This document shows positions 18,225-26,344 of a stretch of 26,344 nucleotides of DNA, piece by piece. The DNA is taken from the NCBI GenBank assembly GCA_964499895.1, contig CAZCPS010000001.1:1-26344 (forward strand), given 5' to 3'. A model generated the notes under the pieces. It was not told the origin of the DNA. It worked only from the letters and a program-made list of their open reading frames with translations, and did not search any database. Position 1 is the first letter of the stretch. Each line of letters starts with the position of its first letter. The position numbers and the translations under genes were made by a program. This DNA is from an uncultured bacterium. Lineage in GTDB: Bacteria > Chlamydiota > Chlamydiia > Chlamydiales > SM23-39.

Positions 18225-19973
18225 TTAGAAGGAGACTTGCGCCGAGAAGTGGCCTCTGGAATGGCTTGGGTATCCGGAGACCCGCTGCGTTACCGCTTCC
18301 AGCTGCCAGCCATAGCTAAAGGTAATCTCAATATTATCGGCTACAACATACCGGCCGCCCGGTCCGATGGAAGCTAGCAGCTGCGTTTTTTTGTCAATTA
18401 CGCTGCGATCCAGATGCACGCCCCAAGCCAGATCGCAAAAGAGATAAAACTGCAAAGACTCTTTGAGCGATTTATAGTTTAGCAGCTTCATTTCCGGTGA
18501 AATTAACTCATTTTTTAGAAGCAGTCCTTTATCGCTGACCATAATATTCTCGGCGTAGCCACGAACCGTCGCATAGCCGCCGGCGCAAAATTGCTCGGAC
18601 GGCAAAAGGATAGCTTCGGTCTGCTGCCATAAGGCATAAAGAGACCAGCGCCAGTTTTTCGGCAGCACAGTAATCCGTTTAATCGAAAATTTTTCATACA
18701 TATAACGGCAATTGGCTTTCGCGCGCTGCAGCTCAAAATCTACCGTCGTATTATAACGCGTCATATTGCCGGGACTATAGTATACGGAAATATCCAAGGT
18801 CGTCGAACCCAAGCTATCCCCAACAGTAGCCTCATACTCGAAAATAAACTGCGAAATATCGGAAAAATTGCTATATAGCGCCGTTTGGGTATAGGTCAAA
18901 AAGTTGTTGGTCCGGCTAAAATCATAACCCAGCGTCAAAGTGTGGTCAATAATGGAAATGGATTTGAGCGGAAGCTCATATCTGCCGCCAAGATACCAGC
19001 CCTTGCCTTTTTGCTTGTAGTGCATCGGCATGGCCGGCTTGACGCCTACGCAACTGCCGAAAATACGAAGGGTGTTGCGCCATGGCAGCGGCCAAATATA
19101 GTTGCCGGAGACCGCCCACCACTTATCAAAAATCTGCGCGTTCATCAGCTGCGCGTTAAGCTGGTGGCCGATATTCCAGAGGTTGCCCATGTTAAAACCT
19201 AAACTATAGCGGGTGTCGCCGGCAATCTCATATTGATTGACTTGATATGACGAATAAACACGCAGCGGAGGTTTGTCCTTGATTTCGATCACAACATCGG
19301 TCTCGCCCGGCTTTTTGCCCTGCTCATAGAAGAGTGAAGCAGAGCGGAAAGGGTTGCCATTCAGCCAGTCCATGTCGGAAAACATGGTGGCCGAATTGAT
19401 ATATTCGCCGGGCTTGCTGCGGATGAATGATTGTAAACGCTCATTGGAAAAGAACTTGGCGCCCGTCACGGTAGCGGTGCCAAGCCGGCCAACCATGATA
19501 ATAAAAACTAAGCGCCCCGAAGAAATGTCCTGATCCGGCAAGAGCCCGACGCGCACTACCAGGTGCCGGTTCAAACGATAGAGTTTGACGATCGCGCTTT
19601 GCATCCGGTTTAAAGAGGCTAGCGTTAACGGCTGATGCAAATAACCCTCAAGCAAATTGGCCAGCTCTCTGGCCAGCGGTAGATGCGGGTTGGTAATTTC
19701 GATGGATGGAATCGGCCATTTTTTGCGCATTTCGCGCGCCGCCTCTATTGTTTCATAAACGGCAATCGCTCTCAAATCGGAACAAAGCTCGATATTCTCG
19801 TCCGTGATCTCCTCTTCGGGAGCTGCCGGCTCCATTTTTTCCGGCACGGAGGGCTCAATCTGCTCATAGAGCGTATTGGCTAGCAGGTCGTCTTGGCTTA
19901 CGACTTCGGAAAAACCTCCCGTAAAAAGAGACTCGGCAATAATTAAGAAAGCAATTAATCTGTTTTTGCCCAT
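18225..19973 (-). CDS. TpsB / ShlB-FhaC-HecB family two-partner secretion outer-membrane transporter
   Basis: 582 aa. Signal-peptide-like N-terminus, POTRA-like segments (LPDQDISSGRLVFII, WLNGNPFRSASLFYEQGKKPGETDVVIEI), GGYATVRGY loop-6 motif, beta-strand pattern and terminal Phe. GAGGTG Shine-Dalgarno and TAATG overlap with the upstream gene. Confidence 0.92.
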   Translation of the reverse strand: MGKNRLIAFLIIAESLFTGGFSEVVSQDDLLANTLYEQIEPSVPEKMEPAAPEEEITDENIELCSDLRAIAVYETIEAAREMRKKWPIPSIEITNPHLPLARELANLLEGYLHQPLTLASLNRMQSAIVKLYRLNRHLVVRVGLLPDQDISSGRLVFIIMVGRLGTATVTGAKFFSNERLQSFIRSKPGEYINSATMFSDMDWLNGNPFRSASLFYEQGKKPGETDVVIEIKDKPPLRVYSSYQVNQYEIAGDTRYSLGFNMGNLWNIGHQLNAQLMNAQIFDKWWAVSGNYIWPLPWRNTLRIFGSCVGVKPAMPMHYKQKGKGWYLGGRYELPLKSISIIDHTLTLGYDFSRTNNFLTYTQTALYSNFSDISQFIFEYEATVGDSLGSTTLDISVYYSPGNMTRYNTTVDFELQRAKANCRYMYEKFSIKRITVLPKNWRWSLYALWQQTEAILLPSEQFCAGGYATVRGYAENIMVSDKGLLLKNELISPEMKLLNYKSLKESLQFYLFCDLAWGVHLDRSVIDKKTQLLASIGPGGRYVVADNIEITFSYGWQLEAVTQRVSGYPSHSRGHFSAQVSF

Positions 19974-25800: not shown

Positions 25801-26344
25801 AGAGGCTCCGGTAGTATAAATGACGGAGCCATACTCAAGCCGCAGAGCCGCATCGGTGCTGTTGGTGCAAGTAGCGGTAATATTGATGGCGCCGTCGGTG
25901 GCGGTAATGTTAGCAGAGGCCAAGCCGGCCGTGCCCATCCGTAAAGCGCTATAGGCGCCGGCGCCGGTGGAAGTCGCCACAATGGTCAGAGCGCCGCCGG
26001 TCGTACGGATATAAGCGCCGCTGCTGATCATGCTGATGGTGTCGGCGTTATTACTGGAAACAGGCGTTGCGATTGATCCGATATTGATAATGCCGGCCGT
26101 CGAATTAATGTGGGCTCCCGCTCCCAATTTTATGGCGCTGCCGGTATCGACAGCCGCCGCCGCAATGGTAATAGTACCGGCGGCAGTAGTAATAAAGGAG
26201 GAGGCATTGAGATAGAGGCTGTGAGCCGCGGCTTTGGAAGATGTTGAAACGGTCACCGCCGCGGAGCCGGTGCCTGTAGCATAGCAGCTGCTGCCGGTTA
26301 AGAAAATACCGCCGCCGGCAGTATAGGCCGAAGTGTCATTGGCC
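22822..26344 (-). CDS. Large filamentous-haemagglutinin-like beta-helical exoprotein (probable TpsA), 5' end outside the window
   Basis: The track's start at 26256 is an internal GTG. The frame stays open to the window edge (ANDTSAYTAGGGIFLTGSSCYATGTGSAA-VTVST), so the protein exceeds 1170 aa. G/T/S/A-rich beta-coil repeats and TWTLTANNAG...NLLGGSGNDTF. The TPS domain would lie outside the window, so TpsA status is inferred from the linked TpsB. Confidence 0.8.
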   Translation of the reverse strand, partial: ANDTSAYTAGGGIFLTGSSCYATGTGSAAVTVSTSSKAAAHSLYLNASSFITTAAGTITIAAAAVDTGSAIKLGAGAHINSTAGIINIGSIATPVSSNNADTISMISSGAYIRTTGGALTIVATSTGAGAYSALRMGTAGLASANITATDGAINITATCTNSTDAALRLEYGSVIYTTGASSGSVTLKCFSSGATDIDLEGASYIKTSISPLLLECRSAGLIFNSTGNPANLSQFYTGSGTLTIKSNAFAVANGYITGTGALSIQPYTASDSFSLPTAALGLFNTGFSSFTIGLLAGTGQVTVGAKDFSGYSCDIILQGGSVVINGNLTMGARGLTVYGNYNKTVASDIVGITVNNNISTTTGAIVLNGKGGNSASDYGVFVTGIAQITSSGSGAITITGIGGPSNTCHGVRIDTAGVLVRATGTGNISITGTGGSGGAGSHGILVSEGGIVETTGEATITMNGTGGGTATGSGGVMVSAGGIIRSTASAPIIVTGTGASGTGACFGINMTGATSTCATNTGKLTLSGTGAGTGIGSYGVDLAGVVQATGAGIIEITGTGAVGTNDNYGLKSAVDITSAGGGITLTGLGKGTGQGGYGVFLDGCKAQTTGTGVITIIGTGSASGTSDCYGVRFSGALGGAQTANGRISITGTGGGSTTGGYGVYIDTGAIVRATGSGAITLTGSGGSGTDNNYGIGLSGLAAHIISASGRVTTNGVGGGSGSGCHGIYADGAAYIESTGGGTLYFDSRAGWVGTGFDIYFAAGTHIGNAASASPIIFNENTVEILGTLQGTGSLTFIPRSNTDMSLGTNATSAVFKFDDAKMAAIATGFASVTFGSSSNNGTIYLNYPNSFNLPLYFYSNNFILEGTLTAGTNPVQINVAQQGVGTCSLGYYVGSGGLTVNGGPNNSAIYVGLKSQEVTVDGQGGSNTMQGADVDKTWTLTANNAGTVSNAVFANMQNLLGGSGNDTFNLLEYSVSGTINGGGGATNLLSYVGDNQVVYVDTATGKASQTGGIANIQGIAGGDGNKQIDLAVVTATVSIGTVFSSVTGGGGMGSFSSFSSSQPIGSTSSTFSATTSSSTEKFGEMQVVVSDARLLNTLSKNIKIRVEKTVAPRAAPIKKVEIKKQIMPEMLKERIETKEFIWKETEVTPQGRREEIREEIFIQEEYEYKKEEK
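24130..25265 (-). repeat. Twelve ~31-aa Gly/Thr-rich coding repeats (beta-helix rungs)
   Basis: Consensus G-x-I-T-[IL]-T-G-T-G-G-x(4-6)-[YH]-G-[VI]-x-[ILV], from TTGAIVLNGKGG through ASGRVTTNGVGGGSGSGCHGIY. Boundaries approximate. Confidence 0.85.

Follow-up and report, generated by a model that had tools for sequence, protein, structure and literature searches.

In Bordetella, the autotransporter protease SphB1 frees mature filamentous haemagglutinin (FHA) at the cell surface (PMC5422565, PMC6070651). The Bordetella system comprises a large beta-helical exoprotein (the TpsA, FhaB), an Omp85-type transporter (the TpsB, FhaC) and a serine-protease classical autotransporter. Proteins of these three kinds recur in the locus analysed here, a candidate two-partner secretion (TPS, type Vb) operon at one end of a 26,344-nt window that is the entire contig C1 of a draft chlamydial genome (1.24 Mb in 180 contigs, completeness 96.5%, contamination 2.5%). 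SphB1, however, is a subtilisin (S8) lipoprotein autotransporter and its gene lies outside the fhaB-fhaC locus, whereas the protease of the window has an S1 chymotrypsin fold, no lipobox and a gene inside the operon, and its cleavage of the TpsA would be by analogy with SphB1. In gene order the locus resembles the Burkholderia bcpAIOB TPS and contact-dependent growth inhibition (CDI) loci, in which tpsA comes first, tpsB last and other genes stand between (PMC5422565). In those loci BcpA carries a toxin domain at its end, and an immunity gene and a small accessory one fill the interval, whereas the gene between tpsA and tpsB in the window is that of the 950-aa protease autotransporter, and toxin and immunity signatures were not found. 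The autotransporter itself is built like the serine protease autotransporters of Enterobacteriaceae (SPATE) and those of the IgA1-protease type (MEROPS S6), with a chymotrypsin-fold head, a beta-helix stalk and a C-terminal barrel (PMC9289746), but it matches Pfam Trypsin (S1) and not Peptidase_S6. The last comparison is with the class-1 tpsB-tpsA loci of sister chlamydiae, whose TpsBs, encoded directly beside TpsAs, are orthologous to that of the window (36-38% identity, E = 1e-116 to 1e-125) and whose TpsAs have TPS domains and passenger modules like those of this genome. These loci have tpsB first and no protease gene, whereas in the window tpsB is last and a protease autotransporter gene is inserted. 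A type Va serine-protease autotransporter inside a TPS operon is a new arrangement, and so far a singleton.

The open reading frame (ORF) listing of the window gives three consecutive minus-strand frames (coordinates in Table 1): ORF3, coding for the exoprotein, followed by the autotransporter gene and tpsB. Read directly, both junctions are overlaps of a stop with a start codon (ATGA and TAATG), and a GAGGTG stands approximately 12 nt 5' of the TpsB start ATG. The original prediction had placed a protease autotransporter between a putative TpsA and a terminal tpsB, all joined by such overlaps, and this layout is confirmed by the ORF listing and the junctions. The gene identities that it had given are borne out by Pfam, with Trypsin/Trypsin_2 and Autotransporter matches in the middle gene and POTRA_2 and ShlB matches in the last. 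Nothing lies downstream of tpsB on its strand. A plus-strand gene for an HD-domain membrane protein (7TM-7TMR_HD/HD) converges on tpsB, ending at position 18223, and the three genes therefore form the 3' end of a transcription unit. Overlaps of 1-4 nt are found at 5 of the 11 same-strand junctions in the window, the V-ATPase operon included. They are routine in this genome and are a sign of operon membership, not of a special link in function.

The middle gene combines a protease and an autotransporter barrel. Pfam finds Trypsin/Trypsin_2 at residues 59-249 (Trypsin E = 3.5e-11) and Autotransporter (PF03797) at residues 687-929 (E = 4.7e-34), with a further barrel match to TIGR01414 (E = 9.2e-20). 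Trypsin and Trypsin_2 are the only protease models among the Pfam matches, which include neither Peptidase_S6 nor a subtilase domain. The N-terminus reads as hydrophobic and signal-peptide-like, and there is no lipobox, as no Cys occurs in the N-terminal 40 residues. A full-length AlphaFold2 (AF2) model built on a 26-sequence alignment is confident for the stalk and the barrel, has a helical linker region at residues approximately 523-642 ahead of the barrel, and has a predicted local distance difference test score (pLDDT) below 50 in the protease domain. After this low-confidence result the protease domain was remodelled alone with 40 sequences, which gave a pLDDT of 88.8 and a predicted template modelling score (pTM) of 0.86. 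In Foldseek the new model matches the S1A proteases urokinase, tPA, elastase and thrombin with template modelling scores of 0.6-0.74; a sequence search of the domain against the PDB returned only weak local matches around the active-site Ser. His74, Asp123 and Ser232 are invariant in both the 26-sequence full-length and the 40-sequence protease-domain alignments. Judged by these models and alignments, the head is a peptidase of family S1 with a chymotrypsin fold and an intact catalytic triad. NCBIfam adds a partial match to EprS, which is confined to the stalk. Only two clear autotransporter genes are present in the genome, of which this is one.

The 5' end of ORF3 is missing because the window is the whole contig. 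Neither a start codon nor a signal peptide nor a TPS domain of ORF3 falls inside the window, and the contig end lies 29 codons upstream of its first possible start. The protein has no Pfam or NCBIfam match. It is composed of Ala/Thr/Ser-rich beta-strand repeats, Gly-rich repeats of the pattern I-T-x-T-G-x-G-G ... Y-G-V (Gly makes up 25% of residues 331-800), an RTX-like module, a Ser-rich linker and a Lys/Glu-rich tail. The tail is 83 aa long, matches in relatives end near residue 1027, and the C-terminal region has no counterpart in Pfam (last 394 aa, E up to 5) or in the Atlas. In the TpsAs of the family, the GGSGND module (approximately 105 aa), for which there is no Pfam model, is repeated up to about eight times per protein.

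Several comparisons nevertheless point to a TpsA. Residues 11-552 of ORF3 are 38% identical, over approximately 580 aa, to residues 570-1140 (approximate limits) of a protein on contig C96 of the same genome that has a bona fide N-terminal TPS domain. PF05860 is found in about half of ORF3's database homologues (approximately 24 of 48), and in sister genomes the complete TpsA proteins, 1228-1980 aa long, combine a TPS domain like those on contigs C174 and C96 with C-terminal modules like those of ORF3. In addition, tpsB follows two genes downstream in the same operon, and its orthologues pair with class-1 TPS domains. By these similarities ORF3 is very probably a TpsA, whose TPS domain would lie beyond the contig end. 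The label 'putative TpsA' given to it before is thus supported by the TPS domains of its homologues and paralogues. Among the homologues of its repeat region are also a protein in which a TPS domain is fused to a CHAT domain (P0166) and a CHAT-domain protein (P0171).

The last gene codes for a TpsB with a ShlB barrel (PF03865, residues 223-515, E = 5.5e-16 in Pfam and 4.1e-17 in the genome search) and a POTRA_2 domain at residues 94-156 that is above the cut-off (E = 1.4e-7); a second POTRA at residues 168-232 is weak only (E = 0.0099). Its loop-6 VRGY is placed as in five of six comparison TpsBs. The genome search found it to be the only class-1 TpsB. The TPS domains of the TpsAs that neighbour its orthologues are closest to those of C174 (42-47%) and C96, and by this similarity the class of the window TpsB is the one that matches class-1 TPS domains. 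Class 2 is represented by a tpsB-tpsA pair on contig C106. In approximately 11 sister genomes that tpsB has an orthologue, 51-58% identical, and the gene immediately downstream of each codes for a giant TpsA (5081-9966 aa). Outside the TPS domain these giants share nothing with ORF3.

In the genome, C106, C174 and C96 each carry an N-terminal fragment with a TPS domain, and C1, C118 and C78 each carry a C-terminal fragment that is TpsA-like. The TPS fragments of C106 and C174 stop at the contig end less than 340 aa from their start (after 338 aa for the C106 tpsA), and that of C96 extends for 1666 aa before it leaves its contig. Evidently, three tpsA genes were split by assembly breaks that repeats induced. 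The end of C1 has no k-mer overlap with any contig end of the genome, and the sole blastn match of the contig ends is to a paralogous stretch of C96, at 73% identity. Upstream of the C174 tpsA, which runs off its contig, there is a membrane-protein gene and not a tpsB, and at least 120 nt upstream of the C96 tpsA are AT-rich and non-coding. Because the class-2 TpsAs are unlike ORF3 and the class-1 ones share its modules, the most likely start of ORF3 is a TPS domain of class 1, that of C174 or of C96. ORF3 as the C-terminus of the class-2 TpsA of C106 was considered and is unlikely, given that the orthologues of that protein in three sister genomes (5081-6581 aa) have the TPS domain alone in common with the fragments of this genome. 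The three C-terminal fragments end in unrelated tails (Lys/Glu-rich on C1, different on C118 and C78) that are reminiscent of polymorphic C-termini, and no toxin or immunity signature accompanies them.

The V-ATPase A subunit encoded in the window is approximately 70% identical to proteins of metagenome-assembled genomes (MAGs) named Chlamydiales, Parachlamydiales or Chlamydiia, and on such sequence evidence the host is an uncultured, environmental chlamydia outside the Chlamydiaceae. The original prediction had set the locus against the Chlamydiaceae and called TPS in this phylum something other than a textbook feature. That framing is misleading because TPS domains are frequent in the phylum (129 of 300 sampled genomes) and in the family of the host (33 of 46). 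They are absent from all 29 genomes of one family with small (1.0-1.2 Mb) genomes, presumably the Chlamydiaceae, and a TPS operon has been described in Rhabdochlamydia helvetica (PMC6490308). TPS is commonplace in environmental chlamydiae, and the unusual part of the locus is the protease autotransporter. The examined sister genomes have tpsB ahead of tpsA, so the terminal tpsB of the window is a local rearrangement. The order tpsA then tpsB is also found elsewhere, at locus L015.

The protease autotransporter has few close relatives. Among 5.8 billion proteins covered by a word-indexed search, none but the window's own protein exceeded 29% identity, and exhaustive searching with HMMER brought up a single full-length homologue at 37% (P0292) besides a few at 28-39%. 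The search of 300 other genomes of the phylum detected no full-length protease autotransporter; there, protease-domain matches are to small stand-alone trypsin-like proteins of one other family and two further weak matches (E approximately 1e-4) cover only the segment after the protease domain. A search of 40 relatives detected none either. The wider S1-autotransporter family, to whose members the window protein is 22-37% identical, counts at least 488 loci across species-representative genomes. Nearly all of the best 80 belong to named Alphaproteobacteria (Sphingomonadales, Maricaulis, Brevundimonas and others), a few being labelled just Pseudomonadota, Proteobacteria or 'bacterium', and in the sources searched the members are named only 'autotransporter domain-containing protein'. 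In one locus of this mostly alphaproteobacterial family (L128, 7060-12979) two S1-protease autotransporter paralogues stand in tandem.

A linked TPS gene was found at none of the loci covered. Seven homologue contexts, including those of the five best matches of the exhaustive search, have no TPS or ShlB gene within 10 kb, and a scan of the best 80 loci (1.47 Mb) with home-made hidden Markov models (HMMs) of TpsB and the TPS domain found none. The scan did give weak matches to ORFs of approximately 817 aa, taken as other Omp85-family members, which suggests that it reaches distant relatives. Nor is there an adjacent or downstream protease gene at the class-1 TPS loci of sister genomes that are orthologous to that of the window. 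The gene of P0292 (L123, 10001-12976) is surrounded by housekeeping genes of a related chlamydia: truA/methyltransferase and map flank a stretch that comprises it and three others, which are unannotated or TPR genes. The metagenome contig is syntenic with C39 of the present genome, and the PLD, truA, map and M48 genes of the two are 42-69% identical. On C39, however, truA and map are adjacent (2775-4375), and the protease gene therefore sits at different sites in related chlamydiae. It is a rare chlamydial gene, found in different places in different lineages and inside a TPS operon only here. We also considered a recent horizontal transfer of the gene, which has no compositional support (GC3 at the 66th percentile); the family is mainly alphaproteobacterial and the nearest member is on a chlamydia-like contig. 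Where a self-contained module had been proposed, no second instance of the three-gene order was found in the 300 phylum genomes, the 7 contexts or the 80 alphaproteobacterial loci. Because these lack such an order, the arrangement belongs to a single lineage and is not a conserved module.

The account towards which we lean, with modest conviction, is that one operon codes for three outer-membrane or surface proteins and that the protease is co-expressed with the TPS pair without demonstrated processing. ORF3 would be a class-1 TpsA with its N-terminal TPS domain beyond the contig end, and the product of the last gene would be its TpsB channel, exporting it by two-partner secretion. This TpsB would probably serve the other class-1 TpsA of the genome too, since only one class-1 TpsB was found. 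The product of the middle gene would display its S1 protease head on the beta-helix stalk by means of its own barrel and so would have no need of TpsB. Its gene would be a lineage-specific insertion between tpsA and tpsB, co-transcribed with the pair and coupled to it in translation, so that protease and exoprotein would reach the surface together. Secretion, co-localisation at the surface and any cleavage are what we infer from this layout. Some observations weigh against the account. The TPS domain of ORF3 is absent from the contig, and three N-termini (C174, C96 and C106) are candidates for it. The arrangement is known from one genome only, and conservation can therefore be used neither way. 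Finally, one of the genome's two clear autotransporter genes stands precisely where tpsA and its tpsB would otherwise meet, its stop and start codons overlapping theirs. Such a position can hardly be taken as neutral, and it fits a functional tie better than mere co-expression. Such a tie would exist if the surface S1 protease cleaved ORF3 as it emerged from TpsB, releasing or activating the exoprotein as SphB1 does FhaB, for example within the Ser-rich linker that leads to its unique Lys/Glu-rich tail. The overlapping junctions on both sides of the protease gene, its intact and conserved triad, a linker and tail that occur in no relative of ORF3 and the TPS-CHAT fusion among the ORF3 homologues (P0166) all argue for this, and SphB1 with FhaB is a precedent for an autotransporter protease acting on a TpsA (PMC5422565, PMC6070651). 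However, such overlaps are routine in the genome, no second instance was found in the genomes and loci searched, the closest and all other examined protease homologues are unlinked to TPS genes, and the orthologous class-1 loci of sister genomes work with no adjacent protease. We regard a dedicated maturase as possible but rather unlikely. A fuller claim, of a type Va protease that is the dedicated co-translated maturase or sheddase of the TpsA and would be the first TpsA-processing protease encoded in its own TPS operon, is unlikely. Direct processing is no more likely than co-expression without it.

Two further explanations would change what the operon contains. ORF3 may not be a substrate of the window TpsB at all, either for want of a TPS domain or because it belongs to the class-2 pair of C106, in which case TpsB would serve the TpsAs of C174 and C96. 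There is indeed no TPS domain within the window, tpsB of the sister genomes is upstream and not downstream of tpsA, three TpsA-like C-terminal fragments stand against only two class-1 N-termini in the genome, and the top database match of ORF3 (P0124) has no TPS Pfam match and is encoded upstream of a TpsB-TpsA pair. However, the ORF is open to the contig end and its homology to a TPS protein begins at residue 11, the giant class-2 TpsAs orthologous to that of C106 are unlike it beyond the TPS domain, tpsA is known to precede tpsB elsewhere (L015; bcpAIOB, PMC5422565) and no other gene follows TpsB on its strand. Taken together, these points make a non-substrate ORF3 quite improbable. A chimeric contig that places an unrelated autotransporter gene beside TPS genes is extremely improbable, even in a MAG of 180 contigs with 2.5% contamination and for a protease-autotransporter family that is mostly alphaproteobacterial. 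It is disfavoured because the three genes have chlamydial nearest relatives and ordinary composition: TpsB and ORF3 are closest to chlamydial proteins, the protease gene has its nearest homologue on the chlamydia-like contig syntenic with this genome, and GC and GC3 of all three are within the range of the genome. Both junctions also consist of precisely overlapping stop and start codons.

If the protease were a maturase, the S1-protease autotransporters, a large family of at least 488 mostly alphaproteobacterial loci, would have a first assigned function. A protease autotransporter encoded in the operon would be a compact exception, in host-dependent bacteria whose surface proteins are poorly known. 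The weight of the case is limited to one draft genome with an incomplete TpsA, and all examined protease homologues stand alone.

Table 1 Features of the TPS and protease-autotransporter locus, with positions in the 26,344-nt window.
Feature	Position	Strand	Basis or remark
ORF3, TpsA-like beta-helix exoprotein	22822-26343	-	1173 codons, open to contig end
S1-protease classical (type Va) autotransporter	19973-22825	-	950 aa
TpsB, ShlB/FhaC-type Omp85 transporter	18225-19973	-	582 aa
ATGA overlap, ORF3 stop TGA and autotransporter start ATG	22822-22825	-	Junction read directly
TAATG overlap, autotransporter stop TAA and TpsB start ATG	19971-19975	-	Junction read directly
Chymotrypsin-fold protease domain, aa ~21-285 (predicted)	21971-22765	-	Pfam, AF2 model, Foldseek
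His74	22604-22606	-	Catalytic triad codon
Asp123	22457-22459	-	Catalytic triad codon
Ser232	22130-22132	-	Catalytic triad codon
Beta-helix stalk of passenger, aa ~290-520 (predicted)	21266-21958	-	AF2 model, pLDDT mostly 80-93
Autotransporter beta-barrel, aa 677-949	19979-20797	-	PF03797, TIGR01414, confident AF2 barrel
About 11-12 Gly-rich repeats of ~32 aa, ORF3 aa ~395-740	24124-25161	-	Regular-expression (regex) blocks
Module with RTX-like GGSGND motif, ORF3 aa ~920-1025	23269-23586	-	Sequence comparison with sister-genome TpsAs
Ser/Gly/Thr-rich linker (aa 1046-1090), then Lys/Glu-rich tail (aa 1091-1173) of ORF3	22825-23208	-	Composition
TpsB loop-6 VRGY, aa 470-473	18555-18566	-	Motif (V/I)RG(Y/F)

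A V-type ATPase operon occupies the left part of the window. Promoter and terminator scans gave approximately what is expected from shuffled sequence and were not used. At 18223-18225 the ends of the HD-domain gene and of tpsB are one base apart, with no intergenic room for terminators on either strand. In sister genomes from the family of the host, genes for an AraC/GyrI-like regulator and a PAS-GGDEF protein are found near TPS loci (L039, 1594-2457; L040, 14794-15690).

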